This document shows, piece after piece, positions 11,986 through 49,510 of a stretch of DNA of 64,000 nt. Source of the DNA: an uncultured Clostridia bacterium (GTDB lineage Bacteria; Acidobacteriota; Aminicenantia; JAMOAD01). Every line of letters starts with the position of its first letter. Position 1 is the first letter of the stretch. A program made the position numbers and the translations under genes. A model generated the notes under the pieces. It worked only from the letters and a program-made list of their open reading frames with translations. It was not told the origin of the DNA and did not search any database. The stretch spans positions 2,328-66,327 of the forward strand of contig CAZWJH010000003.1 in NCBI GenBank assembly GCA_964634755.1, read 5' to 3'.

Positions 11986-12465
11986 ATGGAGATAGAAGTT
12001 TTGGTTGAGAATTTGATAATTGATCCTGTAGCAAAAATGCCTGTGGTGGTTTTAAGAGAAAAAGGAGGAGACAGGATTTTGCCAATCTGGATAGGTTTTG
12101 CGGAAGCAAATGGTATTGCAATAGCTCTTGAAGGGATAAAAATCCCAAGACCTCAAACATACGATCTTCTTAAAAATATTTTGTCTCAAATAGGATATAA
12201 GATTTCAAAGGTGATAATCACTGAAGTGAAAGATAATACTTATTACGCAAAAATTTATTTAAGAAATGTTGATAATGACAATGAATTAATAATAGATGCA
12301 AGGCCATCCGATTCAATTGCCCTTGCATTAAGATTCAACGCAATTATACTTGCAGAAGAAAACCTATTGAAAAAGATAGAAAATCTCTCAGTAGATAATG
12401 TTGATGATATTAAAAAGTGGCTTGAGGAGCTCACTCCGGAAGAATTGGGAAAATATAAAATGTAA
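11986..12465 (+). CDS. bifunctional nuclease (BFN / DUF151) family protein
   Basis: MEIEV...PVVVLREKGGDRILPIWIGFAEANGIA...IIDARPSDSIALALR matches the BFN domain pattern. RBS AAGGAGA upstream of ATG 11986. The ORF track start at 11944 is an upstream extension. Confidence 0.6.
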   Translation: MEIEVLVENLIIDPVAKMPVVVLREKGGDRILPIWIGFAEANGIAIALEGIKIPRPQTYDLLKNILSQIGYKISKVIITEVKDNTYYAKIYLRNVDNDNELIIDARPSDSIALALRFNAIILAEENLLKKIENLSVDNVDDIKKWLEELTPEELGKYKM

Positions 12466-12926
12466 TGATATTTTATGATTTAATCAAAATCAATGAAACA
12501 CTACTAACATTTTACTATTTGTGGGATGATAGTGACGAGAAAGTTATAAGAGCCTCTTTCTCAAAAAAAATAATAAAGAATTTTAAGAAAAAAGAAAATT
12601 CTGAAATAAAGAGAAAATTTGAGCTCTATTTTTTAGAAAAGAGAGAGCTTCCAAAAATAAATTATAAATTTGAAACAAAGATAACAGACTTTGAACTCAA
12701 AGTATTAAAAGAGACAGAAAAAATAAAATACGGACAATTAATAACCTATAAAGAATTAGCCAAAAGGATCCATAATCCAAATGCCTTCAGAGCAGTTGGT
12801 AATGCTCTTGGCAAAAATCCTTTGCCAGTAATAATTCCATGTCATAGAGTAATTTCAGTAAATGGATTGGGAGGTTTTACAGGGGGGCTTCACATAAAAA
12901 AATTTCTATTAAAACTTGAATCATAA
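12465..12926 (+). CDS. ogt: methylated-DNA--protein-cysteine methyltransferase (O6-alkylguanine-DNA alkyltransferase)
   Basis: Active-site PCHRV motif (IPCHRVISVNGLGGFTGG) near the C-terminus. 153 aa. Confidence 0.75.
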   Translation: MIFYDLIKINETLLTFYYLWDDSDEKVIRASFSKKIIKNFKKKENSEIKRKFELYFLEKRELPKINYKFETKITDFELKVLKETEKIKYGQLITYKELAKRIHNPNAFRAVGNALGKNPLPVIIPCHRVISVNGLGGFTGGLHIKKFLLKLES

Positions 12927-12972
12927 TTAACAGTTTTTGCAACTTTTTTTAAATTGGAGGTATCTTATATAT

Positions 12973-13491
12973 ATGGAAGAGCTTATAAAAAGACTTAAAA
13001 AAGGAGATGAGGAAGCTTTGAAGGAAATTATGAAAATGTATAAAAATGATGTTTTTAAATACATGTATTACTTTTTCGGAAATAGAGAGATAGCAGAGGA
13101 GCTTACCCAAGAAACATTCGTAAGAGTTTATTTTAAAGTGAAAACAATAAAGACAAATAATCTAAAAAACTGGATTTTTGCAATAGGAAGAAATATTGCG
13201 AGAAAAGAGTTTAATAAAAGAAAGCTAAAAAGAATGATCAGTCTTGGAGATTTAAGAAAAACTGAGGCTCAGGCAAATTCAAGCGAAAATAAAATCTTAA
13301 TTCAAGAGCTTTTGAAGGATGTTCCAGAAAAATACAAAACCCCCCTTCTAATGAAAGAAATTGAAGGTCTTAGTCTTGAATCAATATCCCAAATACTTAA
13401 AAAACCTGTTGGCACAATAAAATCCTATATTTTCAGAGGAAAAGCAATTTTAAAAAATAAATATAATTCAATGATGGAGGTAAAAAAATGA
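12973..13491 (+). CDS. ECF-type RNA polymerase sigma-70 factor
   Basis: Region 2 (ELTQETFVRVY) and region 4 HTH (LKKPVGTIKSYIFRGKAILK). 170-aa size class. GGAGG RBS 15 nt upstream. Confidence 0.75.
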   Translation: MEELIKRLKKGDEEALKEIMKMYKNDVFKYMYYFFGNREIAEELTQETFVRVYFKVKTIKTNNLKNWIFAIGRNIARKEFNKRKLKRMISLGDLRKTEAQANSSENKILIQELLKDVPEKYKTPLLMKEIEGLSLESISQILKKPVGTIKSYIFRGKAILKNKYNSMMEVKK

Positions 13492-13814
13492 AAAATCCGG
13501 AAGATTTAATAAAGGAGTTAGAATTCAAAGAGAGCCTTTCTGAAAATTTTGAATTAAAAGTCTTTGAAAAGATAAAAAAAAGAAAGTCCATTAAGAAAAA
13601 ATCTAAAATACTATTCGTTTTTGTATCAATTGTCTCTCTTGTAATTTTATCTCTAATTTTTAATATAAGAGCAGTAAGAGAAAATAATCAACAAAATTTC
13701 GCAAAAAAAGAGGTAATTCCAATAATGGATAATGTTATTTTAAGTACAAATAGTGCAACAACCCACTATGCGATGGAAATAGATAACAAATCCAAAGCAA
13801 GGAGGCCATTATGA
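13488..13814 (+). CDS. putative anti-sigma factor (single-pass membrane protein)
   Basis: Translationally coupled to the ECF sigma gene (overlap ATGA). Short cytoplasmic N-terminus, one TM and a periplasmic tail. Assigned from position and topology only. Confidence 0.4.
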   Translation: MKNPEDLIKELEFKESLSENFELKVFEKIKKRKSIKKKSKILFVFVSIVSLVILSLIFNIRAVRENNQQNFAKKEVIPIMDNVILSTNSATTHYAMEIDNKSKARRPL

Positions 13815-19194: not shown

Positions 19195-20457
19195 TTAAAA
19201 TTCTTCCCACTGCAAAATTCTATTTTTTAAATACTCCTTATTTTTTTCAAAAATTTCTGCCTGTTTCTCTATTACCTCTTCAGCTTGTTCCCAATTCATA
19301 TCTATTGTTTCAGAGATAAAAGAGGCTGTTCTTCCGAAATATAGAGGAGAGAGGATGTTTATTAATTTTTTTCTGTTTCTTGACCAATTATGATATGTAT
19401 AAGCAGTATCATAAATAATTAAACTCCATAATTTTCCGTCAATATTGAGCCCATTTCCTTTTTTCTTATTTTCATAGACTTTAAAAAGCCCTTGATAACT
19501 TTCCAGAGAAAGAATATCTCTATAAAGTGAAGAAAATTGTTCGAATCCATCAATAAATTCATCCTCTAATTTTTTTAAATTTACATTTATTTCCGTAGGC
19601 TCAGGGCTATCTTCAACGCCCTTTAAAAGTGGGATATCAACACTTTTTTCAACCTTTGTCCAATTATCCTCATACTCATTCATAAGATCAAACATAGTTG
19701 AAATCACCTGAATAAACATGTGAACCAGATCAGATGCAGGATCTTTGGCATTGTGAATTTTTACGCCGAGATTAGCTTGAGAAATACTATTAACCTCATT
19801 TATGGCAACAGTTGTCATCCAGATATCTATCCCAAATTTGGCTATATCTGTCATCCAAACTTTTTTATCAGAATAAAGTTTTGCCAATTTCCCTGAAAAT
19901 CCGAAATCCCCTCCGATTGGTTGTCTGACTTTTTTTCCATATAAAGCTCTTGTGGTTGGATAAACAATCATATTGGTTATAGTCCCGTCATATTTGTATC
20001 TTTTATAATAGGGAGCAACAAAATGAGTATCTTCATTTAAAATAGGTTCAAGAATATATTTAATCCATTCAGGCCTGATACTTCTAAGGTCAGAATCAAA
20101 AACAGCTATTGCCTTCGCTTCAAGGTGTTTCGCAACTTCAAAAATCGCCCTTAAAGATGTCCCTTTTCCCGGAATTCCCCTGTAAATTGTAACTATCTCT
20201 GAAACATCAGAGGGTATTTTTGCCCTAAGAGCATTCTCCCTTGTATTATCGGTGGATCCTCCGTCCGAAATAAAAATACCTTTTCTTACATCAGGAAAAT
20301 ATTTGCTTAATCCCTCACCTATCCGCTCTACAACAAATCTAATTGTATCTTCATTATTATAACAGGGGACACCTACCAGAATATCAACTTTTTGTTGCTC
20401 TTTAATCCATTTTATCGCCTCATCTCTTAATGCTGTTTCATAAGGTTTAAATCCCAT
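19195..20457 (-). CDS. GT-A fold glycosyltransferase (GT2/GT81-like), candidate glycosyl-(3-phospho)glycerate synthase
   Basis: VGVPCYNNEDTI...ISDGGSTDNT nucleotide-sugar-binding N-terminus and DSD (AVFDSDLRSI) DXD motif. Co-oriented with the next two genes. Confidence 0.5.
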   Translation of the reverse strand: MGFKPYETALRDEAIKWIKEQQKVDILVGVPCYNNEDTIRFVVERIGEGLSKYFPDVRKGIFISDGGSTDNTRENALRAKIPSDVSEIVTIYRGIPGKGTSLRAIFEVAKHLEAKAIAVFDSDLRSIRPEWIKYILEPILNEDTHFVAPYYKRYKYDGTITNMIVYPTTRALYGKKVRQPIGGDFGFSGKLAKLYSDKKVWMTDIAKFGIDIWMTTVAINEVNSISQANLGVKIHNAKDPASDLVHMFIQVISTMFDLMNEYEDNWTKVEKSVDIPLLKGVEDSPEPTEINVNLKKLEDEFIDGFEQFSSLYRDILSLESYQGLFKVYENKKKGNGLNIDGKLWSLIIYDTAYTYHNWSRNRKKLINILSPLYFGRTASFISETIDMNWEQAEEVIEKQAEIFEKNKEYLKNRILQWEEF

Positions 20458-20465
20458 ATTTCCTC

Positions 20466-21674
20466 CTATTTATTATCTTTGTCAACCAATTTTTTTAATT
20501 TGTCAAGAAAGTTTGGATAGGCTGAAGTAATTCTGTTCCAATTGGGAAGCATTTGAACTCCCATAGGATCTTCAAGAAATTTCTCGGAAGAGTGAATCAA
20601 AGCTTTGTAAAATGTTTCCACTATTGATTCCTCCTGATGCCTGTCAAATGAAAGGCCATTCATCATTGCTATTGCATGATAACTAGAAATCATATCCTCG
20701 GCAATCCTCAAATATGTTTTCTGAATCGCTCTTATATTCCCGTCGGAAATTATAACTCCTTCCGCTGCAATATTCTTTAATACATTAGTTGCAATATCAA
20801 TTGTCATCTTATGGAGACCCATATTTGCATCAGCTTCAGAGACTTTTTGATGTTTATGATCATACCTTTGAGCCAACCCCACCTGTGTAATTCTTTTAAG
20901 AGTAACATTTCTATAAACTTCATAAAGAACACTAACTTCAAGTCCCCAATCACCCGGGAATCTCATAACTCTTGCAAGCCCTGTTCTTAAAGCAAACTCT
21001 CCCGAAAGCGGATATCTGAAACTGTTAAGATAATAAATAAAAGGATGAGGGCCCAAAACCTTTAATAAAGCTTTAAAAAACGGAATAACAAAAAGTCTTG
21101 TAACTCTTCCGTGAAGTTTTTTACTAAATCTTGCATAAAATCCTTTTGAAAATTCAAAAGGTAAATGAGGGCTTACAAGAGGATAAATTAATCTTGCAAG
21201 CATCTCCTTCGAATATGTCTCAATATCAGAATCATGTAAAGCAATTATGTCGGCCTCCCCTTTTGCAAGTATATAACCAAAACCTGTCCAACAAGATTTC
21301 CCTTTTCCTTCGGGACCTATTTTTAAATTAGCTTTATCAAGATCAAAAATCATATCTTTTATCTTAGGATTATCCATCCAAAGTACAGTAATGTTTCGAG
21401 GATGATTCTTAATTTCATCTTTCACTCTTTCAAACTTTTCCCTTGAAGCACCACCTAAAGATAAAACAACTTCATTAATAAAATCTATGTCTTTCATTAT
21501 TTCTAGGATTCTTTTCATCGCAGGTCTTACATAATCACTATAAAGAACAGGTATAAGAACCGCTGTTTTTTTTCTTTTTGAAAATTTCATTAAGTGAGAA
21601 TCTATGATATCAGAACCTTTTTCTCCCAAAATATTAATTGTTGTTATATTTCCTGATTGAAAAAAATCTGACAT
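20466..21674 (-). CDS. GT-A fold glycosyltransferase, mannosyl-/glucosyl-3-phosphoglycerate synthase-like
   Basis: About 400 aa with DXD (ALHDSDIETY) and size/architecture compatible with MpgS-type enzymes. Adjacent to an MpgP-family phosphatase. Confidence 0.45.
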   Translation of the reverse strand: MSDFFQSGNITTINILGEKGSDIIDSHLMKFSKRKKTAVLIPVLYSDYVRPAMKRILEIMKDIDFINEVVLSLGGASREKFERVKDEIKNHPRNITVLWMDNPKIKDMIFDLDKANLKIGPEGKGKSCWTGFGYILAKGEADIIALHDSDIETYSKEMLARLIYPLVSPHLPFEFSKGFYARFSKKLHGRVTRLFVIPFFKALLKVLGPHPFIYYLNSFRYPLSGEFALRTGLARVMRFPGDWGLEVSVLYEVYRNVTLKRITQVGLAQRYDHKHQKVSEADANMGLHKMTIDIATNVLKNIAAEGVIISDGNIRAIQKTYLRIAEDMISSYHAIAMMNGLSFDRHQEESIVETFYKALIHSSEKFLEDPMGVQMLPNWNRITSAYPNFLDKLKKLVDKDNK

Positions 21675-21726
21675 TTCACACCTCCTTTTAAGATTTTTTA
21701 TGGATTGCCTTTACAACTTTATATTA

Positions 21727-22554
21727 CTATATTAAAAATAATTTTTCAAATATTTCATTCCATCCTTCGGGAGCAGGATTTTTTGTTAAAAAAATATCTC
21801 TAATTTCATTTTTTATTTTTCTTGAATAAAATCCATCCTTCTTTTTAACTAAAACAGGAATATCCGCAAATTTTAACATTGACAAATCATTTTCAGAATC
21901 ACCAAGCCCTATTGTTTTTATTTTGTTTTTCTGGTAAATCTTCTTGTAAAATTTATAAATAATCTCAGCAGCCATTCCTTTATCATACTCCCCTGATAAA
22001 TGATAAAAACGTCCCCCTTTTACAATTTTTAATCCAAAAGCTTTTAACTCTTTAAAAAAGTTTCTTGTTCCATAATTATTAGTTTCTATTATTATAAAAG
22101 GAATATCATACTCTCTTTTTTTTACCTTTTCTATCATCTCTCCTTTTAAATTTAAAATATTCTTAAATTCATTATTAGAAAAATCAAAAATAGTTTTTAC
22201 ACTTACCTCATACTTCTTTGAAGCTTCTTTAAGCAAAGGAAGTATACTTTTTATGTGCATTCCAATTTCTATTTTACATAATTCATCATCGCTAACTTTA
22301 TATTTACGATCTAAAAATTTTTCATAAGCTTTTGGGAAATAGATAGCACCTCCATTCTCAATAGCAAAAGGATAATCAATTAAGCCTATTTCTTTTCTAA
22401 AAACTATAGTTTCTTCAAATGTTTTACTTGTAAGAAATATTATCGGAAAATTATTTTTCTTAAGGTAGTTTATGGATTTTCCCGCCCCCCACCATTCATA
22501 GGTATCATAATCAAGTAAAGTTCCATCAAGATCAGTAAAGATTAAATATTTCAT
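21727..22554 (-). CDS. HAD-IIB phosphatase, mannosyl-3-phosphoglycerate phosphatase (MpgP/YedP) family
   Basis: N-terminal FTDLDGTLLD HAD motif I. Conserved TSKT motif II. GDSENDLSML motif IV. 275 aa, typical of the MpgP family. Confidence 0.65.
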   Translation of the reverse strand: MKYLIFTDLDGTLLDYDTYEWWGAGKSINYLKKNNFPIIFLTSKTFEETIVFRKEIGLIDYPFAIENGGAIYFPKAYEKFLDRKYKVSDDELCKIEIGMHIKSILPLLKEASKKYEVSVKTIFDFSNNEFKNILNLKGEMIEKVKKREYDIPFIIIETNNYGTRNFFKELKAFGLKIVKGGRFYHLSGEYDKGMAAEIIYKFYKKIYQKNKIKTIGLGDSENDLSMLKFADIPVLVKKKDGFYSRKIKNEIRDIFLTKNPAPEGWNEIFEKLFLI

Positions 22555-22585: not shown

Positions 22586-22613
22586 CAATAGGATAAAGAA
22601 ACGGAGCGGGCAA
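22586..22613 (-). terminator. Rho-independent terminator after the NifX-like operon (minus strand)
   Basis: Perfect 9-bp GC-rich inverted repeat GGAGCGGGC-AAG-GCCCGCTCC (22593-22613) followed on the minus strand by TTTCTTTAT. Confidence 0.65.
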
Positions 22614-22660
22614 GCCCGCTCCGTCCACACAAAAGGGGTAAGCTTTATTTGAAAAGAGAC

Positions 22661-22860
22661 TTACTTCCAGCCTCTGCCAAAACCCCCGCCAAAGCCTCCG
22701 CCTCGGCCTTTTCCTCCACCTTTTCCAAAGCCTCCGCCTCTACCTCTTCCTCTTCCGAAACCACCACCGAAGCCTCCACCTCGGCCACCTCCAAATCCAC
22801 CACCAAAACCTGCTCCTCCTCCGGACCCGGGTCCACCGAAACCTCCTTGCGGGGTATAAG
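22661..22860. repeat. GC-rich imperfect tandem repeats (ccaaagcctccgcctc-like units) encoding the Gly/Arg/Phe tail
   Basis: Local GC content far above the window background. Units of about 15-18 nt repeated with variation. Confidence 0.6.
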
Positions 22861-23221
22861 GTGGCATTTGTCCGTTAGGGTTTGCAGGAGCGGCTTCCAA
22901 CTTTCCTTGAGTTGTCATCTCATATGCCTCTCTTACACTTATTCCAGAAGGTGCAGAAACCATCTGAATACCCGCCCCCGAAAGAACAGACGAAGCATTT
23001 GGACCAAAAGAACCTGAAACAACTATGTTCACACCTTGAGATGCAACATATTGAGCTGCTGCTGTCCCTGCCCCACTTGGAGAAGCTGCATTAGGATTAG
23101 GAATTATCTGAACAGCATCAGGATTTTCAGAATCAAAAATCACATAATAAGCTGCTCTTCCGAAACGAGGATCCACAGGACCATTCAAATCTTCAGAGCT
23201 TGCAGTTACTAATATTCTCAT
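22661..23221 (-). CDS. NifX/NafY-like (dinitrogenase FeMo-cofactor-binding, PF02579-type) domain protein with C-terminal Gly/Arg/Phe repeat tail
   Basis: N-terminus MRILVTASSEDLNGPVDPRFGRAAYYVIFD...VNIVVSGSFGPNA fits the MKIAV..HFG....iyd...vd.vi.g.iG pattern of the family. The last 60 aa are (GGFGGG/RGRGRG/GKGGGKGRG) low-complexity repeats. Confidence 0.55.
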   Translation of the reverse strand: MRILVTASSEDLNGPVDPRFGRAAYYVIFDSENPDAVQIIPNPNAASPSGAGTAAAQYVASQGVNIVVSGSFGPNASSVLSGAGIQMVSAPSGISVREAYEMTTQGKLEAAPANPNGQMPPYTPQGGFGGPGSGGGAGFGGGFGGGRGGGFGGGFGRGRGRGGGFGKGGGKGRGGGFGGGFGRGWK

Positions 23222-23814
23222 TTTTCCTCCTTAACATTTTTTTCAATTTCTGCCAACCTTTTCTCATAGTAATCTAACTGAGACCTAAGATTGTCTATTA
23301 TGTTTTTTAAAAAACTCTTTTCATCAAAATTATAAGACTGCGGATATGTGCCTCCTGGAAAAACACCCCAATTCATAGCCCAACCTCTTCCAAAACCTCT
23401 ACCCCATCCGAATCCCCATCCAAATCCATAGGGATTGTATTGAGGAAAATAAGATGCTGGAATAGTTGTTTGTTGAGGAACTGTTTGAGTAAAATCTCCA
23501 CTCAGCACTTTTTCAACCGCATCTTTTACGGAAATTCCTCCAGTCTCCGTAATCATTTGAATACCAGCTGAGCTTAAAATCATTGAAGAGTTAGGCCCGA
23601 AAGCACCTGAAATAACAGCTTGAACTCCCTTCTCTAATATAAATTGGGCTGCAACAATACCTGCCCCCGAAGGAGTGTTTATAAAAGGGTTTTGAATTAT
23701 CTCTGGATTATTTGGATGCTCACTATCGTACACAATAAAATAAGGTGCTCTTGCAAATCTCATATCCACTGGAGAATTCAGATCAGGCGCTGATGATGTG
23801 ATAAGTATCCTCAT
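23218..23814 (-). CDS. NifX/NafY-like domain protein with Gly/Trp/Arg repeat linker (GFGWGFGWGRGFGRGW) and C-terminal coiled coil
   Basis: Paralog of the downstream gene (MRILITSSAPDLNSPVDMRFARAPYFIVYD...VQAVISGAFGPNS). Aromatic/Gly repeat, then a 40-aa K/E coiled coil. Overlaps neighbours by 4 nt. Confidence 0.55.
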   Translation of the reverse strand: MRILITSSAPDLNSPVDMRFARAPYFIVYDSEHPNNPEIIQNPFINTPSGAGIVAAQFILEKGVQAVISGAFGPNSSMILSSAGIQMITETGGISVKDAVEKVLSGDFTQTVPQQTTIPASYFPQYNPYGFGWGFGWGRGFGRGWAMNWGVFPGGTYPQSYNFDEKSFLKNIIDNLRSQLDYYEKRLAEIEKNVKEEK

Positions 23815-24110
23815 TTTTTCTCCTCCTGCACAGTGGTTGGTGTAGGTGTTACCATATTGTATCCATAGGGAACAGGATAGTTAAAACCAGTATAACCAGT
23901 ATAAGATGTATAATATGGGTTATAGTACCCCATCCACCTCCAACCTCTTGGAAGTCCGGTCCATGGGCAATAGCCAAGAGTTGCTCCATAACCGAAACCT
24001 CTGCCAAAGCCTCTGCCTCTGCCAAAGCCTCTGCCTCTTCCGAAACCTTTGCCTCTCCCCCAACCAAAGCCTCCGAAACCATAATAATAAGGATTCATAT
24101 AGTTAAACAT
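23811..24110 (-). CDS. small Gly/Arg/Tyr-rich protein (99 aa) with (GFGRGR)n repeats and a GYCPW motif
   Basis: ORF in operon context with 4-nt overlap on the downstream side. Sequence is MFNYMNPYYYGFGGFGWGRGKGFGRGRGFGRGRGFGRGFGYGATLGYCPWTGLPRGWRW... The underlying DNA contains an 18-nt tandem repeat. Confidence 0.45.
   Translation of the reverse strand: MFNYMNPYYYGFGGFGWGRGKGFGRGRGFGRGRGFGRGFGYGATLGYCPWTGLPRGWRWMGYYNPYYTSYTGYTGFNYPVPYGYNMVTPTPTTVQEEKK
23990..24060. repeat. 18-nt tandem repeat gccaaagcctctgcctct (2 perfect copies plus degenerate flanking copies) encoding (GRGRGF)n
   Basis: Copies at 24003-24020 and 24021-24038 are identical. 24039-24056 and 23993-24002 are degenerate. Confidence 0.7.
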
Positions 24111-24122
24111 TTCACACCTCCT

Positions 24123-25478
24123 CTATTTAATTTTTGAAATTAAATTTTCAGCAGCTTTTATTATCGGATAAGTCGTAGGAGCTGATGTTAGAAGTGGGTG
24201 AGTTCCTATCTGTGAAATCAAAAGTCCGCCGGTTGTGGTTTTTTGCTGAATAGCAAAACCTAAAAAGTTAATTAACTCACCTGTACTATCTCCTCCGAAA
24301 ACTTGAGCCCCCATTATTATCTCAGATTTTTTTGAAGCTATAAGTTTAATTCTCTGCTTATGAGCTCCAGGTAAAGATCCCGGATGTCTATCCACACTCT
24401 CTGCCTCTCCTATAACGATATCAAAACCCAACTCTCTTGCCATTGCTTCTGTAACACCTGCTGAGCCAAAAGCATTGTTACCAATCTTAGTTGAAAAGAT
24501 TCCGATTGTTCCCGTAAATGTCTTAACCACTTGAAGTTTAAAAAGATTTGCCCCTGCTATCCTTGCCTCTGAAGTTGCCGTTGAAGCAAGCATAATCTTG
24601 CTAATTCTTCTCGTAATAAAATCCTTTCTTTCAACACAATCTCCCACAGCAAAAACATGGTCATAATCCGTTCTTAAATATTCATCAACCCAAATAGCTC
24701 CTGAAGCTCCAAGCCTTACTTCTGCCTCAGCTGCAAGTTTTACATTAGGTTTATACCCCAAAGAAAGAATAACAGCGTCAGCATCAATGGTATCATCATT
24801 CTCAAGGACAACCTTTTCAACCTTGCCTTTCCCTTCTATTCTCTTTACTCCAATTCCGGTAACCAAATCAACTCCATACTTCTTAAGCTCCTCTTCCGCT
24901 TTAATACAGCATTCTTCATCAAATGCAAGGTAAAGTATGTGAGGTAATTTTTCCACAATAGTGATTTTCTTATCATCATATTTCCTTAACTCATCGGCAA
25001 CCTCCACACCGATAAATCCTCCGCCAACTATCACTATGTTTTTAAAACTTGAAAGTTTGCTTTTTAAATCCCTAAGATAATCAATATTCTTTTTAATATA
25101 AAAAACATTTTCAAGGTCCCTTCCTTCAAGCCAAGAAGGCTCTGTGGGAGTTGAACCGGTAGCAAAAACTACCTTTTCAAATTTAATCTTATCACCTGCT
25201 TCCGTAAAAGCAACTTTCTCTTTAATATCAACTTTTTTAACAGAATCCACTATAATCTCAATACCTTTTTTCAAAATAGGTTCATCTGGAATAATATCTT
25301 TTTCTGGAGAATCAAGAGTACTTAAAACATAAGGAATACCACAGGGAATCAATACCTTTTTTTCTCTCCTTAAAATAGCAACACTTTTTTCCGGATAATA
25401 TGTTTTTGAAGTAACTGCCGTAATAATCCCAGCAGGTCCTCCACCAACAACTAAAACATCAAATTTCCTATTTGCCAT
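24123..25478 (-). CDS. FAD-dependent pyridine nucleotide-disulfide oxidoreductase (NADH oxidase / CoA-disulfide reductase family)
   Basis: VLVVGGGPAGI FAD-binding GxGxxG. Single redox Cys in PCGIPY. Second dinucleotide fold IVIVGGGFIGVE. C-terminal dimerisation domain. 451 aa. Confidence 0.75.
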   Translation of the reverse strand: MANRKFDVLVVGGGPAGIITAVTSKTYYPEKSVAILRREKKVLIPCGIPYVLSTLDSPEKDIIPDEPILKKGIEIIVDSVKKVDIKEKVAFTEAGDKIKFEKVVFATGSTPTEPSWLEGRDLENVFYIKKNIDYLRDLKSKLSSFKNIVIVGGGFIGVEVADELRKYDDKKITIVEKLPHILYLAFDEECCIKAEEELKKYGVDLVTGIGVKRIEGKGKVEKVVLENDDTIDADAVILSLGYKPNVKLAAEAEVRLGASGAIWVDEYLRTDYDHVFAVGDCVERKDFITRRISKIMLASTATSEARIAGANLFKLQVVKTFTGTIGIFSTKIGNNAFGSAGVTEAMARELGFDIVIGEAESVDRHPGSLPGAHKQRIKLIASKKSEIIMGAQVFGGDSTGELINFLGFAIQQKTTTGGLLISQIGTHPLLTSAPTTYPIIKAAENLISKIK

Positions 25479-25894
25479 TATTTCCTCCTTTTATTTAAAT
25501 TTTTTCTGTTTTTCCCAAAGCCTTTTCTCCATCTGCCTCTTTCACCCCTTCTTGACCATTCATTATAAAAAATAGTTTCACTAAAAAAAGATGGGATTTT
25601 GCCTTTAAGATATAAATCCACTACCATATCAGGTTCCATAAACCCTCCATTAAAAATTTCAATCCCATTAAAATACAAATTTCTTAAAAACCCTCGCGGA
25701 CCCCCACCACAAATTATTATATTAATATTTTCGGATTTAAGGACACTTAAAAGTTCCATAGGATATTCAAGTATAAGATTTATACTACTCTTCCCCACAA
25801 TTCTCCCATCCACAATTTCATAAATAATAAGCTGCTCCGAAAAATCTAACCTTGGAGCAACTATATTTCTAAAAACCGCTACTGCTAATTTCAT
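25478..25894 (-). CDS. NifX/NafY-like (PF02579-type) domain protein
   Basis: MKLAVAVFRN...IIICGGGPRGF...GIEIF matches the family pattern. The ORF track start (TTG at 25921) is probably an over-extension; ATG 25894 gives MKLAVAV. Confidence 0.55.
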   Translation of the reverse strand: MKLAVAVFRNIVAPRLDFSEQLIIYEIVDGRIVGKSSINLILEYPMELLSVLKSENINIIICGGGPRGFLRNLYFNGIEIFNGGFMEPDMVVDLYLKGKIPSFFSETIFYNEWSRRGERGRWRKGFGKNRKNLNKRRK

Positions 25895-25978
25895 ATTGTT
25901 AGATATAAAATTTCGTGCCAACTTTATAAATTGCCATAAATCCCTATAATTATTGAATTTTTTCTTTTTGAAATTTTA

Positions 25979-25994
25979 TGGCAACAATCCTGCA
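25979..25994 (+). promoter_or_regulatory. Candidate sigma-54 (-24/-12) promoter TGGCAA-N6-TGCA reading into the sigma-54 activator gene
   Basis: TGGCAACAATCCTGCA has GG and GC exactly 12 nt apart as in the TGGCAC-N5-TTGCA consensus. A 6+1+6 palindrome AAACATTATGTTT (25996-26008) and a direct repeat TGTTGCAT-AA-TGTTGCAT (26012-26029) follow. Confidence 0.4.
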
Positions 25995-26057
25995 AAACAT
26001 TATGTTTCATTTGTTGCATAATGTTGCATTTTACTTAAATCCAGTTTAAAATAAAAC

Positions 26058-27338
26058 ATGAAGCAAAATGATTATTCAGATATTTTAGACCACCTTTTTG
26101 AAGGAGTCTTAATAATTGATAATGAATTCAAAATCAAAGAAATAAACAAAGCTGCTTCACAGATAACAGGATTCGAAAAAGAGGAAGCAAAAGGCAAATT
26201 TTGCTTTGAAATACTCAAAGCAGATGCCTGCACAAAGAATTGCCCTATTAAAGCATTAAAAGATGGAAAAGAGCAAAGAGAAATAATAGTAAACATAATA
26301 AATAAAAAAAATGAAGAAAAATATATAAAAGTAAAAGCTTTCCCGTTTGGAGATAATTGGATTGAAATTTTTCAGGATATAACAAGAGAGTACGAACTTG
26401 AAAGAAGGATAAAAAAAGGTTTTAAATTAGAAGATATAATCACAAGAGACAAAAACCTTCTAAATATTTTAAGTGCATTGCCCAAAATTGCAAAAAGTAA
26501 TGTTCCGGTGTTGATAGAAGGAGAAAGTGGTGTTGGGAAAGAGGTTTTCGCTACTGCAATTAAAAACTTAAGTGATAGAAAGGGTAAACCTTTTGTAAAG
26601 ATAAATTGTGCAGCGCTTCCCGATACCCTTCTTGAATCAGAGCTTTTCGGATACAAAAAAGGAGCCTTTACGGATGCTAAAAAGGATAAACCCGGACTTT
26701 TTGTTCAAGCTAACAAAGGAACTATTTTTTTGGATGAAGTTGGAGAAATGAGTCAAAATATTCAAGCCAAACTATTAAGAGTTGTTGAAACAGGAGAAAT
26801 AATTCCACTCGGAAGTACAAAAGCGGAAAAAGTTGATGTTAGAGTAATTTCCGCAACAAACAAAAATCTTGCAGAGGAAGTTAAAAAAGGCAACTTTAGA
26901 GAAGATCTTTTTTATAGGCTTAATGTAGTTAATGTTAAAATCCCGCCACTGCGAGAAAGAAAAAGTGACATACCTCTCTTTATTGATTACTTCATCTATA
27001 GATTAAATATTGTACATAATAAAAAAATAGAGGGAATTTCAAAAGATGCTCTTAATCTTCTACTTTCTTATAATTATCCTGGCAATATAAGAGAGCTGAG
27101 GAATATTCTTGAGTATGCTTATATTTTTTGTGAAAAAGGTGAAATAAAAATAGCTCATCTTCCCGAATATATTAAAATAAAAAGCGGGGGAAAAGAGCTG
27201 AACCAAAACACTAAAGAAAAAGAAAGGATTCTTAAGATTTTGGAAGAAGTAAAGTGGAACAAAAAGTTAGCCGCCCAAAAACTCGGAATAAATAGAACAA
27301 CTCTTTGGAGGAAAATGAAAAAACTTGGAATTTCTTAA
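26058..27338 (+). CDS. sigma-54-dependent transcriptional activator (PAS sensor - AAA+ sigma-54 interaction - Fis-type HTH)
   Basis: N-terminal PAS-like region. Walker A VLIEGESGVGKE. ESELFGY (GAFTGA-like loop GAFTDA). Walker B FLDEVGE. C-terminal HTH (NKKLAAQKLGINRTTLWRKMKK). Confidence 0.8.
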   Translation: MKQNDYSDILDHLFEGVLIIDNEFKIKEINKAASQITGFEKEEAKGKFCFEILKADACTKNCPIKALKDGKEQREIIVNIINKKNEEKYIKVKAFPFGDNWIEIFQDITREYELERRIKKGFKLEDIITRDKNLLNILSALPKIAKSNVPVLIEGESGVGKEVFATAIKNLSDRKGKPFVKINCAALPDTLLESELFGYKKGAFTDAKKDKPGLFVQANKGTIFLDEVGEMSQNIQAKLLRVVETGEIIPLGSTKAEKVDVRVISATNKNLAEEVKKGNFREDLFYRLNVVNVKIPPLRERKSDIPLFIDYFIYRLNIVHNKKIEGISKDALNLLLSYNYPGNIRELRNILEYAYIFCEKGEIKIAHLPEYIKIKSGGKELNQNTKEKERILKILEEVKWNKKLAAQKLGINRTTLWRKMKKLGIS

Positions 27339-27339
27339 A

Positions 27340-28543
27340 TTAAATAACAACATTATCAACTTTGTTTCTTCCTGTTTTTTTTGCTTTATAAAGGGCATCA
27401 TCCGCTGCTTTAACCAAAATCTCACAATTAATTTCTTTTTCAGGAACCATAGTTGCCACACCAAGGCTTATTGTTAAAATATTTCCAATATCGGAGAGTG
27501 GGTGCTTTATTTTAAGTTTTATAATCTCTTTTCTCATCTTTTCAGCGATTTCAAATGCGACTTTATTCTCTGTATTTGTTAGAACAATTATAAACTCTTC
27601 TCCACCAAATCTTGCAACAAGATCCCCCGCTCTTCTTGAAAAACTTTTTAATTTTTCTGCAACCTTAGAAAGAATTTTGTCGCCTTTCTGATGTCCAAGG
27701 TAATCATTATATTTTTTTAAAATAATCTATATCAACCATTATTACAGAAATTGGCTCTCCTTTCCTCATAGCCCTTTTCCATTCTCTTTCTAAAAAATCT
27801 TCAAGATATCTCCTATTTGCAATTTTTGTCAAAGAATCGGTCCATGCTAACTCTTTTAATTTTTCGTTAGTACTTTTAAGTTCCTTTCTTTCTATCGCCA
27901 CAAGAGAAGAAAGAAGAAACACTCTTCTCTGATTTTTTCTATACCAAAAGCTTGAAATCATTCCAATAAAATTAAAAAAAAGACATTACTAATAAGAAAA
28001 CTTTTTTCAGGAGTAGATATAAAAAAGAGCTTAAAAAATATGCTCCTATTAGGATACTCCCAATTATTAGAGTGTACCTAAAGCGAATACCAACAGCTAC
28101 ATATGAATATAATAAAACAACAGTAAGCCCTGCATAGTATCCATGGGTGGGATCCTTAACAAGACAAATCATAAGAATTATCATTAATCCTGCTACAATT
28201 AAAGCAACACTAAAAAGAAGCTGCATTTGGATTTCCTTTTTAGCTTTTAATAAAAGAAAACCAGCCAGCACAATTGGAGGGCCCCTTAAAACATAACGGA
28301 TAAAAAATAATTTTCCAAAGAAATCCGGATAAATAAAGTAATCCAAAAGGCCAAAGATAAAATATATAAGAATTCCAAGAGAATTGAAAATCTCATAGAT
28401 TCCCTAATTCTAATAAAAAGAAATTCTTTAAATTTCTGTTCAACTTCTTTTGAAAATTTAAGAGAAAAAAAGCCTTTTTTTAGTTCTTCCTCTATTTTTT
28501 CTTTATCATAATAGTAATAATCAGAATTGTTGTTCTTATCCAT
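27340..28543 (-). pseudogene. GGDEF-domain diguanylate cyclase with N-terminal membrane sensor region, interrupted by at least three frameshifts
   Basis: Four consecutive minus-strand ORF fragments (28543-28286, 28346-27972, 27961-27707, 27537-27340) together encode cytoplasmic N-term, TM region, DSLTKIANRR...DIDYFK and, in another frame, YNDYLGHQKGD...RFGGEEFIIV (GGEEF motif)...ADDALYKAKKTGRN. Frame changes coincide with A8 (27973-27980) and T7 (27712-27718) homopolymers. Confidence 0.5.
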
Positions 28544-45047: not shown

Positions 45048-47702
45048 ATGAATTTGAAGAAAATAGGTTATTTATTAATGCTCTCACTAATATTTTTTGG
45101 TTATGCATTTTCGGAAAAGGTTGACCCGAGAAAAAACAAAATAATAAAAGCTTACAGAACTTATGAAAAAATAAAAATTGATGGTGTTTTAAATGAAAAA
45201 GTGTGGAAAAACAGAGGAAGAGATGATTTTATTCAATCAATGCCAGTTGACGGAGGAAAGCCCACAGAAAGAACTGTAGTTTGGGTGGCTTATGATAAAA
45301 AGAACCTTTACGTTGCCGCAAAGCTCTATGATTCAGCGCTGGATAAAATTGTAAAAAGGTTCGGAGTAAGAGACAGTGATCCTGAAGCTGACCAATTCAT
45401 ATTTGCAATAGATCCGTACCTTGACAGAAGATCCGGTTATCTCTTTAAAATAAATCCTACAAATTCGGTTTTGGACGGAGCACTTTATAATGATTCAAAC
45501 AGGGATGATAGCTGGGATTGCGTGTGGGAATCAGCCGTTAAAATAAACAAGGACGGATGGACAGTTGAAATAAAAATTCCCTTTAATCAATTAAACTTCA
45601 AATCAGACAAAAAGGAGCAGGTTTGGGGGGTTAATTTTGAAAGGGTAATTAAGAGGAAGAATGAAAAAGTCTCATTTGTTTGGATACCGAGAAACGACAA
45701 TGGATATGTATCACACTTTGCAAAATTGGTGGGGATAAGTGATATTAAACCCGGAATTTATACTGAATTATCACCCTATATAGTCGGACAGGCAAATTTA
45801 TATCCCGAAGAGGAAGGGAATCCCTTTAAAAGCGGAAAGGATTTTTCAGGTAATATCGGACTTGATGCTAAAATCAATCTTAAAAGCAATTTAAAATTAA
45901 ATCTTAGCTTTAACCCTGATTTCGGACAGGTAGAAGTTGACCCGGCTGTAATGAATTTAACTGCTTATGAAACTTATTTTGAAGAAAAAAGGCCTTTCTT
46001 CATAGAAGGAGCCGGTATTTTTACTTTCGGACATGGGGGAGTTAACATGAATGTCAATGTTAACTGGACTCCTCCCCAATTTTTCTATAGCAGAAGAATA
46101 GGAAGACCTCCTCAGGGATATACAGACGCAGACTATTCTAAATATCCAGATCGAACAACCATTTTAGGAGCAGCAAAGCTTACAGGCAAAATCGGGAACA
46201 ACTGGAACATAGGCGTTATTTCGGCTTTAACTTCAAGGGAATATGCTCAAACATTTTCCGGTGGTATTGAAGGAAGTGCAGAGGTTGAACCATTGAGTTT
46301 TTACAGTATAGTGAGAATCCAAAAAGAATTTAACAAAGGCAAAAGAGGAATCGGATTCATCGGAACAGGGGTTTTAAGGGATTTTGATAATAATGAACTT
46401 TCTTCCATTTTAAATGAAAAGACCTTGGCAATAGGGATAGACGGATGGAATTTTTTTGGTAAAAACCAAAAATGGGTTGCTTCAGGATGGTTAGGAGCAA
46501 CAAAAATTTATGGCACGCCTGAAAGGATTTATGATGTTCAGTTATCCCCTCAACACTATTTTCAGAGACCCGATGCGGATTATCTTAACCTTGATCCGGA
46601 AGCTACAAGTCTTACAGGATTTGCCGGAAGATTAACTTTAAATAAAGAAAAAGGGAACTGGCTATTTTTTTCTCAAATCGGATTTATCTCCCCCGGATTT
46701 GATGTAACAGATCTTGGTTTTCAGAGAGAAAGCGATATAATTAACATCCACATTTTTCCCGGTTATCAATATTATAAACCAGGAAAAATATTCAGATTCT
46801 GGCTTGCAGCCGGTGGAGTGGGAATGAATTATGATTTCGGAGGGAGCAACCTAAGTAAACTATACCTCGGAATGTTTGAAGGAACCTTTTTAAATTATTG
46901 GGGAATCCATATTCTGTTAGGACTTTCCGACAAAGGACTTTCAAAAACAGCAACAAGAGGAGGTCCTTTGATGCAAACTCCCCGCGGTAAAATTGCAGAG
47001 TTCAGCATTTACTCCGACAGAAGAAAACCACTAACAATATCCATTTTTTCAAACATTATGAAATCAGAAGATAGTGGAAAGACTTACTCAGTAGGTTCAT
47101 ATGTGGGAATAAAACCAAAATCAACATTAAACTTTTCCATTGGCCCGGAAATTACGATAGGGACAAACAAATCCCAATGGGTAAATAATATCGATGATCC
47201 TCTAATGAGCGAAACTTTTGGTAAAAGATACATATTTTCATCAATAGATCAGCAAATCTACTCTTTAAACATAAGATTGAACTGGACATTTTCTCCAAAG
47301 CTCAGTTTTACTCTATTTATGCAACCCTTTATTGCGATAGGTGACTATTATGAATTCAAAGAATTAAAAGCTCCTAAAACATATGATTTTAATGTTTACG
47401 GAGAGAATGGCTCAACAATTGAGTTTGATAATGATATTTATACAATAGATCCTGACGGAGATAGACCGGCAGAGGCTTTTTATCTTGACAACCCTGATTT
47501 TAACTATAAATCCATAAGAGGAACAGCTGTTTTAAAGTGGGAGTTTAAAACAGGCTCAAACTTTTATCTTGTGTGGACTCAAAATAGAAGCAGTTTTTCA
47601 AATATTGCAACATTTGATCTTTCAAGAGATCTTGATGATTTGATAAATGCTAAAGGCTCAAATGTTTTTCTTGCAAAAATAAGTTACAGGTGGGGAATGT
47701 GA
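45048..47702 (+). CDS. large secreted protein, CBM9-like N-terminal domain + DUF5916-like body (884 aa)
   Basis: Signal peptide. N-terminal region (IDGVLNEKVWKN...YVAAKLYD) resembles family-9-like carbohydrate-binding modules that precede DUF5916 in FCB-group proteins. Aromatic-rich beta structure throughout, ending in a C-terminal aromatic residue-rich strand. Confidence 0.4.
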   Translation: MNLKKIGYLLMLSLIFFGYAFSEKVDPRKNKIIKAYRTYEKIKIDGVLNEKVWKNRGRDDFIQSMPVDGGKPTERTVVWVAYDKKNLYVAAKLYDSALDKIVKRFGVRDSDPEADQFIFAIDPYLDRRSGYLFKINPTNSVLDGALYNDSNRDDSWDCVWESAVKINKDGWTVEIKIPFNQLNFKSDKKEQVWGVNFERVIKRKNEKVSFVWIPRNDNGYVSHFAKLVGISDIKPGIYTELSPYIVGQANLYPEEEGNPFKSGKDFSGNIGLDAKINLKSNLKLNLSFNPDFGQVEVDPAVMNLTAYETYFEEKRPFFIEGAGIFTFGHGGVNMNVNVNWTPPQFFYSRRIGRPPQGYTDADYSKYPDRTTILGAAKLTGKIGNNWNIGVISALTSREYAQTFSGGIEGSAEVEPLSFYSIVRIQKEFNKGKRGIGFIGTGVLRDFDNNELSSILNEKTLAIGIDGWNFFGKNQKWVASGWLGATKIYGTPERIYDVQLSPQHYFQRPDADYLNLDPEATSLTGFAGRLTLNKEKGNWLFFSQIGFISPGFDVTDLGFQRESDIINIHIFPGYQYYKPGKIFRFWLAAGGVGMNYDFGGSNLSKLYLGMFEGTFLNYWGIHILLGLSDKGLSKTATRGGPLMQTPRGKIAEFSIYSDRRKPLTISIFSNIMKSEDSGKTYSVGSYVGIKPKSTLNFSIGPEITIGTNKSQWVNNIDDPLMSETFGKRYIFSSIDQQIYSLNIRLNWTFSPKLSFTLFMQPFIAIGDYYEFKELKAPKTYDFNVYGENGSTIEFDNDIYTIDPDGDRPAEAFYLDNPDFNYKSIRGTAVLKWEFKTGSNFYLVWTQNRSSFSNIATFDLSRDLDDLINAKGSNVFLAKISYRWGM

Positions 47703-48541: not shown

Positions 48542-49510
48542 ATGTCAAAAAAATTAGCTTTTGAGAGATTTGTGTGGTTTATCAATAAGGTAAAAAAGGG
48601 TGATTATCCGAATGCAACAGATATTCAGGAATACTTTGAGGTTTCAAGGTCAACAGCTCAAAGAGATCTTGATTTTATGAGAGATAGATTTCAAGTGCCT
48701 TTAAAATACGATAGAGTAAGAAAGGGGTATTATTTTGATGAAGCAGACAAAAATTATGAACTACCACTTTTTTGGGCGTCAAATGAAGAGCTTCTGCTTT
48801 TTGCAATTTTAAAAGAACTAATCAGAGATGAAAAGCTCAAAAAAACATTGAAAAACTTTTTAAAGAAAATTACCTCATTTTCAGAGGAGGAATTCGAAAA
48901 GATAAGCAATTCTGTATCATACAAAGGTATAAGACTTCACAAAAACAAAGAGGGGGCACTTGAAACAATAGCCAAAGCTCTAATTGAAAGTAGAAAGATG
49001 AAGATAAGTTATTATTCCGTGTTTGCGGATAAAAACAATACAACTGAAAACACAATAACTCCATTGCATTTAATTTATTATATGGGGAATTGGTATCTTT
49101 TGGCTGAAAAAAATTCCCAGCTCCGTACCTACGCTGTCTCAAGAATCTTCAATCCAACAGTTTTGGAATCTGAAGGGAAATATCACTTTTCAGAAAAAAG
49201 AATAAAAGAGATTCTTAACCAGTCCTTTGGAATTTACCTAACGGATAAAAGAAAAGAGCTTTTTGAAGTAAAGTTGAAATTTTCAAAATCCATATCCCAT
49301 CTTATTGAAACTCTTATTTTCCACCCAGAACAAAAGTGTGAAAAATTGGATTCCGAAGAAATTATAGTGAGCTTTAATTCAACTTTTAATTATGAGTTAA
49401 TAAGAGAGATTTTAAGGTTTGGAAATGAAGTTGAGGTACTTGAGCCTACAATTTTAAGGAAAAAAATTTACGAAATTTTGAAAGAATCCGTAAAAATATA
49501 CGAAAAATAG
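48542..49510 (+). CDS. WYL-domain transcriptional regulator (HTH - WYL - C-terminal WCX-like)
   Basis: N-terminal HTH (ATDIQEYFEVSRSTAQRDLDFMRD). Central WYL domain including a literal GNWYLLA motif. 322 aa, typical PafBC/WYL architecture. Confidence 0.6.
   Translation: MSKKLAFERFVWFINKVKKGDYPNATDIQEYFEVSRSTAQRDLDFMRDRFQVPLKYDRVRKGYYFDEADKNYELPLFWASNEELLLFAILKELIRDEKLKKTLKNFLKKITSFSEEEFEKISNSVSYKGIRLHKNKEGALETIAKALIESRKMKISYYSVFADKNNTTENTITPLHLIYYMGNWYLLAEKNSQLRTYAVSRIFNPTVLESEGKYHFSEKRIKEILNQSFGIYLTDKRKELFEVKLKFSKSISHLIETLIFHPEQKCEKLDSEEIIVSFNSTFNYELIREILRFGNEVEVLEPTILRKKIYEILKESVKIYEK

Follow-up and report, generated by a model that had tools for sequence, protein, structure and literature searches.

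Two described systems come closest to the gene cluster reported here. The orp operons of Desulfovibrio vulgaris Hildenborough comprise DVU2103-2109 (PMC3897727, PMC6345978, PMC8359166), and an ORP complex with a proposed role in cell division and morphology has been described in Desulfovibrio (PMC6345978, PMC3897727). The regulator OrpR senses redox potential through a [4Fe-4S] cluster in its PAS domain, which needs C52, C61 and C65 and has a conserved Asp/Glu at position 54, and it shuts its operons off as the redox potential rises (PMC8359166); DVU2106 is listed with a GAFTDA loop (PMC4641369). The other system is IssA of Pyrococcus furiosus, in which an IPR003731/PF02579 domain is followed by a 70-residue unstructured, cationic, aromatic and Gly-rich tail that holds the only Cys of the protein (PMC5524996). 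IssA stores iron and sulfur as anionic thioferrate in particles of 20-300 nm, and its tail has been proposed to wrap the polyanion (PMC5524996). MTH1175 has been placed in the IssA clade, and an uncharacterised clade, 'IssX', also has a high isoelectric point (pI) and Gly-rich tails (PMC5524996). The response of Thermococcales to elemental sulfur, S0, includes the joint induction of Nsr, SipA/IssA and Mrp/NBP35 (PMC6981617), and the NSR of Thermotoga maritima uses NAD(P)H to reduce thiosulfate as well as S0 and polysulfide (PMC9431562). Here we analyse a stretch of 64,000 nucleotides (the window; assembly GCA_964634755.1, contig CAZWJH010000003.1, positions 2,328-66,327 of the forward strand), and in it a five-gene operon, A to E, with a divergent activator gene (positions 22,586-26,057).

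Judged by sequence comparison, this locus is most simply described as a variant of the orp/OrpR system that carries IssA-like modules, modules derived from DUF5320 and an NSR/CoADR-like enzyme that it has recruited, and it is not an unknown module. The original prediction for this DNA had called it unstudied and had regarded NifX-like proteins outside nitrogen fixation as uncharacterised; neither statement can be maintained, because the locus is a variant of the anaerobe-specific orp cluster under an OrpR-type regulator (PMC8359166, PMC6345978). Its suggestion of a redox or cofactor-handling role pointed to the right general area. In what follows, coordinates are window positions, L-numbers denote loci of homologous genes, and P-numbers denote individual homologous proteins.

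The five consecutive minus-strand open reading frames (ORFs) span 25894-22661, opposite the sigma-54 activator gene, exactly where they had been predicted (Table 1). Overlaps of 4 nt had been claimed for the operon as a whole; they exist at the C/D and D/E junctions, but A and B share 1 nt (TAATG) and B and C are separated by a gap of 12 nt. The strong GC hairpin terminator is likewise present, but it lies at 22626-22599 and is thus slightly offset from the predicted 22593-22613. An AGGAGG Shine-Dalgarno sequence precedes each of B, C, D and E, and gene A has none. Two metagenome assemblies carry identical copies of the locus, and a genome scan indicates that the nearest named genomes are metagenome-assembled genomes (MAGs) of Candidatus Aminicenantes. 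A search of the 21.5-28 kb region of the window against Rfam gave no match.

The activator has Pfam matches to PAS_9, Sigma54_activat (8.8e-69) and HTH_8 (4.8e-13). Its PAS domain contains the motif Cys49-x-Glu51-x6-Cys58-x3-Cys62, its AAA+ domain has a GAFTDA loop, and a Fis-type helix-turn-helix lies at the C-terminus. Since C-x-E-x6-C-x3-C and GAFTDA equal the published OrpR determinants, the activator appears, judged against the published descriptions of the OrpR motifs, to be OrpR-like. The Cys motif and the GAFTDA loop are common to 13 of the 14 distinct enhancer-binding protein (EBP) sequences, from about 11 lineages, that are encoded beside orp-like clusters, and motif-bearing activators adjoin clusters of the PF02579/Orp3/4 type in loci of Aminicenantes, Armatimonadota, Spirochaetota, Kiritimatiellae, Deferribacteres, Acidobacteriota and Planctomycetes. 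By analogy with OrpR, the PAS domain would hold a redox-labile [4Fe-4S] cluster on Cys49, Cys58 and Cys62 (with Glu51), and when the redox potential is low the activator, acting some 100 nt upstream, would switch on sigma-54 RNA polymerase.

The arrangement of a divergent EBP gene and A-(B)-C-D-E is kept in another six lineages, with protein identities to the window of 35-95%, so that the neighbourhood is indeed conserved elsewhere. In L045, the EBP/A/B/C/D/E block runs on in the same orientation into a PF02579 gene, two CbiA+Fer4 genes (the Orp3/4 architecture), a FeS_assembly_P gene and another PF02579 gene; in L005/L011 the block lacks B but is otherwise arranged alike, and Mrp and ferredoxin genes flank it at its opposite side. 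A genome scan with the D family yielded 31 loci, 27 of them outside the Aminicenantes group. In 23 of these 27, from both bacteria and archaea, the PF02579 gene adjoins Orp3/4-like pairs and/or Mrp, often together with an activator that carries the OrpR motif. In L007, a more distant relative, an rpoN gene (12338-13693) is found about 4 kb downstream of the A-C-D-E module, within a set of the lptB-rpoN-hpf-ptsN type.

Three PF02579 proteins had been predicted. D and E match this Pfam family clearly (1.5e-19 and 2.3e-17, respectively), but A stays below the Pfam threshold (E=0.003; 18 bits versus a cutoff of 26). It turns out, however, that the A family aligns with the D/E family with a probability of 98.4% in the profile-profile comparison (hhalign), and that its profile matches the PDB structures TM1290, PH0822, TM1816 and MJ0327; on these grounds A is a genuine, though divergent, member. 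Gene A also matches the C-terminal domain of NCBIfam MrpORP (1.3e-7). Among PDB structures, the D/E profile finds MTH1175 (2e-30), the D. gigas ORP 2WFB (1.3e-29) and TM1290, with no NafY or NifX structure at E<=0.01, and E alone aligns over its full length with MTH1175 (8.7e-18) and 2WFB (4.3e-16). The core of D (residues 1-110) is modelled by AlphaFold2 (AF2) with a per-residue confidence (pLDDT) of 80-90. Placed by identity and profile matches rather than by a tree, D and E have MTH1175 as best solved relative, and their cores seem to belong to the ORP/MTH1175/IssA branch of PF02579.

The regions outside the cores are of unusual composition. The tail of E (76 residues; pI 12.0) contains 41 Gly, 9 Arg/Lys and 10 aromatic residues with no acidic ones, and that of A (38 residues; pI 11.8) contains 4 Gly, 13 Arg/Lys, 7 aromatic and 3 acidic residues. 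In D, the core is followed by a 53-residue GFGWGRG linker (residues ~111-163; 11 Gly, 2 Arg/Lys, 15 aromatic, no acidic residues; pI 9.4), which is disordered in the AF2 model (pLDDT <50 for residues 112-163), and then by a C-terminal helix (165-197) ending in KEEK. The last ~65 residues (126-190) of D match DUF5320, PF17253 (38.4 bits versus a cutoff of 27; 3e-9). Neither D nor E has a Cys. Proteins of the E type end in Trp or Phe, and C and D end in an EEK-like motif that is conserved among related loci. Because composition, end residues and gene order are kept at the protein level, even in related loci whose proteins are only 35-75% identical, the tails are real and not artefacts of reading frame or low complexity. 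In the DNA that encodes them, Tandem Repeats Finder gives only short, imperfect codon-level repeats, and nothing in these suggests an element at the DNA level.

Gene C, as predicted, encodes a protein rich in Gly, aromatic residues and Arg: by count, 24 Gly, 27 aromatic residues, 11 Arg/Lys and one Cys (Cys48) in 99 residues. AF2 gives it a mean pLDDT of 46.6, disordered throughout. It matches no family in Pfam or NCBIfam (in Pfam, none even at E<10), and its own family is rare, with 84 representatives at E<=1e-3 among 1.84e9 proteins. Alignments of that family have an invariant motif, GYCPWTGLPRGWRW, that is, G-Y-C-P-W-T-x-x-P-R-G-W-R-W. The same motif is found in about 50 small proteins, many of them annotated as DUF5320, in which a Tyr/Pro-rich stretch and then the DUF5320 coiled coil follow. 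P0204 combines it with the canonical MPxGDxTGP N-terminus of DUF5320. The link between C and DUF5320 came from profile-search matches that share GYCPWTGxPRGWRW; a direct hhalign comparison of the C family with canonical DUF5320 gave a one-column alignment only. A profile search further revealed that the motif terminates the Thermococcales PF02579 proteins P0202, P0014 and P0235. The tail of P0202 (74 residues, with 11 Pro, 10 cationic residues, 15 aromatic residues, 17 Gly and one Cys; pI 11.7) closely matches the published description of IssA, and we infer from this that the three are IssA orthologues. Thus, C is the Cys motif of IssA and DUF5320 standing by itself, without a coil, and the DUF5320 coil is carried by D.

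On this branch of PF02579, Gly/Arg/aromatic tails are the described hallmark of IssA (PMC5524996). The claim that the fusion of repeats to NifX-like domains is distinctive holds for the combination of PF02579 domain and DUF5320 coil seen in D, which is rare (about eight clusters; the four loci with an organism name are from Aminicenantes MAGs), but not for tailed PF02579 proteins as such, which we found also in Armatimonadota, Bacillota and other MAGs. The pairing of NifX-like genes with DUF5320 in anaerobes, put forward in the original prediction, is borne out by our scan: an ORF of the MPxxDxTGP (DUF5320-like) type is present in about 15 of the 31 loci, mostly adjoining the PF02579 gene, and all five such ORFs that were compared with Pfam are DUF5320. 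In Thermococcus, an Orp3/4-like pair, a further PF02579 gene and a DUF134 gene are found 3.4 kb away from the IssA-like gene, a context that ties IssA to the same kind of cluster. Two Thermoplasmatales MAGs (L022, 380-580; L023, 380-559) have short DUF5320-like proteins (MPGGDGTGP...) that lack the coiled coil and end in a Cys-rich, zinc-ribbon-like CICSNCGH...CPKCG; these adjoin PF02579 and Orp3/4-like genes.

Gene B has the Pfam domains Pyr_redox_2 and Pyr_redox_dim (8.7e-59) and no rhodanese domain. It had been described as a single-cysteine oxidoreductase, which is correct in that only Cys46 stands at the CoADR/Nox active-site position, but the protein has four Cys in total. Its nearest solved relatives are the Pyrococcus horikoshii CoADR structures 4fx9 and 3kd9 (1.6e-53), with whose PCGIPY Cys Cys46 is aligned, and it also matches the families of H2O-forming NADH oxidase and NADH peroxidase. 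The clade to which it belongs is very large and consists of flavoproteins of about 450 residues from anaerobes (55-60% identity), many of them annotated as NADH oxidase. On these matches, B is predicted to be an NSR/CoADR-type flavoprotein. It occupies the same position in four lineages of the module (the window, L003/L008, L045 and L039), of which the named one is Aminicenantes; related CoADR-family genes stand by orp-type clusters in other phyla too. In a Lentisphaerae MAG (L030), a CoADR-family gene (5e-119) directly follows ORP-like and MrpORP-like genes; CoADR-rhodanese genes lie within a few kb of orp-type clusters in L027-29 and L034; and in L047 a CoADR-family gene is divergent from a tailed ORP-like gene with Orp3/4 and Mrp.

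For the promoter, the 60 nt 5' of gene A were aligned from seven loci (the window, L003, L005, L007, L009, L039 and L045). Few columns are invariant, and those that are functionally relevant are TGGCA, the TT and T of the -12 box, and the ATG(A) of gene A. The shared motif is TGGCA[C/T/A]-N5-TT[G/T]N-T, with TGGCA at a fixed position in all seven loci; the -24 element is thus conserved throughout, in support of the sigma-54-linked operon that had been proposed. The -12 box has the canonical TTGCT in L005 and L007, TTGAT in L045, TTGTT in L039, and TTTAT in the window, L003 and L009, so that its GC is intact or half-intact in the first four and eroded in the lineage of the window. Across the window, TGGCAC-N5-TTGCW has 20 matches versus 15.6 expected from shuffles and is not enriched; because the motif count is not above chance, the promoter call rests on cross-locus positional conservation.

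The distance from the -12 base to the ATG of gene A is 11 nt (12 in L007), and GG falls at -25/-24 when the A of this ATG is counted as +1. Since this geometry puts the A of the ATG at +1 and gene A lacks a Shine-Dalgarno sequence, the gene A transcript is predicted to be leaderless, starting at or next to the ATG, and, given the fixed spacing, it may be a naturally occurring example of a sigma-54 transcript without a leader. In three apparent transcription units, the first gene (A at 25894, the activator at 26058 and a phosphatase at 22554) has no Shine-Dalgarno sequence, and internal genes have a strong AGGAGG; this genome may generally start its transcription units with leaderless genes.

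An inverted repeat, TGCAACA-N12-TGTTT(T/C), sits 100-124 nt 5' of the gene A start codon and is a candidate activator binding site. It is the sole match to its pattern in the window (expected 0.00), and the pattern recurs in the intergenic regions between the EBP gene and A in L003/L008, L039/L040 and L007, from which, however, it was derived, so that the test is partly circular. In a Desulfobacca MAG (L021, 682-706), TGMAACA-N12-TGTTTY matches once upstream of a DUF5320/PF02579/Mrp/Orp3/4 cluster, which could be chance or a shared activator box.

What might this operon do? The reading that we prefer, and to which we give an even chance, is that the products of this IssA-like variant of the orp cluster bind or store an anionic metal sulfide under redox control, and that sulfide generation is coupled to this. 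According to it, the PF02579 cores of A, D and E would hold an anionic inorganic metal sulfide non-covalently, most likely a thioferrate-type Fe-S species as in IssA or, alternatively, a Mo/Cu-S cluster as in ORP; the identity of this cargo, Fe-S and thioferrate-like versus Mo/Cu-S and ORP-like, is its main uncertainty. The polyanion would be enveloped, and its charge neutralised, by the disordered cationic Gly/Arg/aromatic tails (of A, D and E) and by protein C with its one conserved Cys, and oligomerisation would come from the DUF5320 coiled coil in D. B would reduce sulfane sulfur (S0, polysulfide or persulfide) with NAD(P)H to sulfide that feeds the assembly. Taken together, the products would store metal sulfide, detoxify it or donate it to the assembly of clusters, under a redox gate. 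If OrpR-like logic holds, the operon would be on under reducing conditions, which would fit sulfide chemistry.

Several observations weigh against this reading. As to the cores, D and E are about 37% identical to ORP and 38-40% to MTH1175, and only 30-35% to the Thermococcales IssA-like cores; as to the tails, that of IssA has one Cys and those of D and E have none. IssA itself may mainly sequester insoluble FeS rather than store it (PMC8219758). B reaches only 232.6 bits with the NCBIfam CoADR model TIGR03385, the cutoff of which is 578.8 (with NF007123 it has 216.8 bits versus a cutoff of 458), and its closest homologues outside the module stand in unrelated gene contexts. Moreover, B is absent from the otherwise identical modules L009, L005/L011 and L007. 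Because all the other proteins place L039, which has B, farther away than L009 and L005, the distribution of B is patchy and B is dispensable; that B might be an obligatory member of the module was considered and is ruled out by its absence in L005, L009 and L007. No Orp3/4, Mrp or rpoN gene was found within the 64-kb window, whose only ParA-like ORF (58052-58924) is FlhG-like and lies beside FlhF and FlhA. Finally, the GC of the -12 box is replaced by TA in the window, L003 and L009, a loss that may weaken sigma-54 dependence, and a weak sigma-70-like TTTATA-17-TATATC overlaps the sigma-54-type promoter of the window. The eroded GC and the overlapping element together may mark a shift in promoter type or in activator dependence.

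A first alternative is the classical orange-protein function. D and E would bind a Mo(W)/Cu-sulfide cluster and act in an ORP complex, and B would make sulfide for the thiometalate or keep the complex reduced. The full-length alignment of D and E with 2WFB (1.3e-29, 4.3e-16), the OrpR-type activator, and the contiguity of sister loci with Orp3/4-like and Mrp genes all speak for it. We nevertheless hold it to be fairly unlikely: no genes for Mo, W or Cu transport or cofactors were seen among the annotated ORFs of the window, from which Orp3/4 and Mrp are missing as well; cationic Gly/aromatic tails are documented for IssA and not for ORP; and the motif of C is shared with Thermococcales IssA-like proteins. 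A different proposal is an oxidative-stress module in which B, as NADH oxidase or peroxidase, removes O2 or H2O2, the PF02579 proteins shelter or repair O2-labile clusters, and the activator responds to oxidants. That B matches the NADH oxidase and peroxidase families and has many homologues annotated as NADH oxidase, and that the regulator is a redox sensor, agree with this; yet OrpR is off at rising redox potential (PMC8359166), the opposite of what defence needs, the closest solved relatives of B are CoADR/NSR enzymes, and CoADR-rhodanese (persulfide-type) enzymes take the equivalent position in other phyla, all of which makes the proposal improbable.

The remaining two alternatives start from the tails and from the name of the family. 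The original prediction had raised the possibility of a condensate- or nucleic-acid-associated redox module, with RGG/FG-like tails that bind RNA or DNA or drive phase separation. The tails are indeed RGG/FG-like by composition and predicted to be disordered, and a survey flagged DUF5320 and DUF134 proteins of Methanosarcina as having a potential quadruplex-binding RG motif (PMC7565180). However, no nucleic-acid-related gene is linked in any of the loci examined, the tails are always on, or encoded beside, metal-cluster-binding PF02579 domains within Fe-S gene clusters, and the alternative, binding of the tail to anionic thioferrate, is experimentally grounded (PMC5524996). With no evidence for it at the locus and a better-founded model at hand, we consider this explanation highly improbable. 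As for a role of A, D and E as NifX/NafY-type chaperones of FeMo-co or NifB-co for nitrogenase, PF02579 is named for cofactor carriage, but we saw no nif gene among the annotated ORFs of the window or of the related loci, the D/E profile matches ORP, MTH1175 and TM1290 and no NafY/NifX structure, and the module sits in orp-type clusters of organisms, archaea included, that are not known as diazotrophs. The missing nif context and the absent structure matches effectively refute it, and we give it next to no chance.

The preferred reading of a redox-controlled metal-sulfide store can be extended to the orp clusters of anaerobes in general, in a form that is speculative and that we expect to be wrong rather than right by a wide measure. 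These clusters would be a redox-gated machine that builds and mobilises protein-coated, thioferrate-like particles; the tails, C and the DUF5320 coil would be a modular, multivalent coat that nucleates on PF02579 cores, the NSR-like enzyme would feed in sulfide, and the Orp3/4 and Mrp ATPases would unload the particles. If true, such a coat-and-particle scheme would make ORP, IssA and DUF5320 parts of a single system and bring IssA-type storage to bacteria.

Table 1. Positions of the operon, its control elements and the activator gene in the window
Feature	Position	Strand	Description
Gene A	25478-25894	minus	138 aa counted from ATG; divergent PF02579 protein, ICGG motif, basic Arg/Lys tail
Gene B	24123-25478	minus	451 aa; CoADR/NSR/Nox-family FAD (flavin adenine dinucleotide) flavoprotein, Cys46 in PCGIPY
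Gene C	23811-24110	minus	99 aa; disordered Gly/Arg/aromatic protein with motif GYCPWTGLPRGWRW
Gene D	23218-23814	minus	198 aa; PF02579 core, GFGWGRG linker and DUF5320 coiled coil
Gene E	22661-23221	minus	186 aa; PF02579 core and cationic Gly-rich tail
OrpR-like activator gene	26058-27338	plus	426 aa; PAS, Sigma54_activat and HTH_8
Candidate activator site (upstream activating sequence)	25994-26018	minus	inverted repeat TGCAACA-N12-TGTTTT
Sigma-54-type promoter	25905-25920	minus	TGGCAC-N5-TTTAT
Intrinsic terminator of the operon	22599-22626	minus	12-bp stem, 8 GC pairs, 4-nt loop, T-rich tail

The genes around the operon are of other kinds. Downstream (3') of the terminator, at 19195-22554 on the minus strand, lies a compatible-solute cluster that is syntenic in L003/L008. 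It contains an MPGP-family phosphatase gene (TIGR01486, above the cutoff), a Methanococcoides-type GpgS-like glucosyl-3-phosphoglycerate synthase gene (338 bits versus an equivalog cutoff of 700) and a GT2/MGS-like glycosyltransferase gene, and it resembles the pathways of glucosylglycerate or mannosylglucosylglycerate. Beyond the activator gene, at 27340-28543 on the minus strand, a GGDEF diguanylate-cyclase gene is split into four ORFs in three reading frames; its orthologue in L003 is one intact MASE8+GGDEF gene of 405 codons, and since two independent assemblies, L001 and L002, have the breaks too, the gene is apparently a true pseudogene. Farther away are a flagellar cluster (56321-62128, minus; FlhA, FlhF, FlhG, the sigma factor FliA, and FliM), a regulator with a WYL/WCX domain (48542-49510, plus) and an 884-residue DUF5916 protein (45048-47702, plus), the last two unrelated to the operon.

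Compared with orp/OrpR of D. vulgaris Hildenborough, the locus has the same divergent sigma-54 activator, with the C-x8-C-x3-C motif and acidic residue in the PAS domain and the GAFTDA loop, the same combination of a sigma-54 promoter with an upstream palindrome, and small ORP-type PF02579 proteins; Mrp genes and MinD-ferredoxin ATPases similar to Orp3/4 are shared by the sister loci only. In contrast, the window has one operon, whereas orp has two divergent ones, and it lacks nearby the Orp3/Orp4 (MinD-like, with two [4Fe-4S] motifs) and MrpORP that the orp cluster encodes. It has three paralogous PF02579 proteins whose tails are basic or disordered, a coil derived from DUF5320, a separate tail protein and an inserted CoADR-like flavoprotein. 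The palindromes differ as well (TGCAACA-N12-TGTTT in the window versus GGGCGYRTTTTGCGCCC in orp), and the promoter of the window has a degenerate -12 element and abuts the start codon.

With IssA (SipA, PF2025), the window shares the succession of a PF02579 domain, of the same broad branch as MTH1175, and an unstructured cationic Gly/aromatic tail with a W/G/R repeat pattern, the Cys motif that gene C has in common with the tails of the Thermococcales IssA-like proteins, and the pairing with a sulfur-reducing type of enzyme, since IssA and an enzyme of the NSR type are expressed together in response to S0 and the tails of the window are paired with the NSR/CoADR-type B. The features that IssA unites are, however, distributed here over several genes: E combines the core with a Cys-less tail, D has a coiled coil in addition to its core and short tail, and C consists of just the Cys motif. 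The window is, moreover, from a bacterium and under an OrpR-type sigma-54 activator, whereas IssA is under SurR or sulfide/iron. The PF02579 proteins of the window may be members of the 'IssX' clade.

With D. gigas ORP (2WFB), the cores of D and E can be aligned along their whole length, with about 37% identity and with the motifs VDPRFGRA and GAGI-AAQ in common, but ORP is tail-less, and its cargo is a non-covalent [S2MoS2CuS2MoS2]3- cluster. B resembles the NSR/CoADR enzymes (P. furiosus PF1186; P. horikoshii 4fx9 and 3kd9; T. maritima NSR, PMC9431562) in fold, domain order, the single active-site Cys in PCGIPY and a length of about 450 residues without rhodanese, and differs from them in lying far below the equivalog cutoffs, in a large clade found mostly in unrelated contexts. 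With DUF5320 (PF17253), the C-terminal 65 residues of D are similar above threshold, and C shares GYCPWTGxPRGWRW with one PF17253 subfamily; unlike DUF5320, C has neither the MPxGDxTGP N-terminus nor a coiled coil, and the coil of D is fused to a PF02579 domain.

The locus and its relatives physically join two lines of work that have been separate, the Desulfovibrio ORP/OrpR system and the Pyrococcus thioferrate store IssA. They meet in the IssA-style tails on ORP-branch proteins in OrpR-controlled clusters and in the Thermococcus IssA-like gene near Orp3/4-like genes; DUF5320 proves to be composed of the same tail and coil modules, and an NSR/CoADR-type flavoprotein has been recruited repeatedly. 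The comparison provides testable hypotheses for ORP, for IssA-like ('IssX') proteins and for DUF5320, in a compact bacterial system of five genes.

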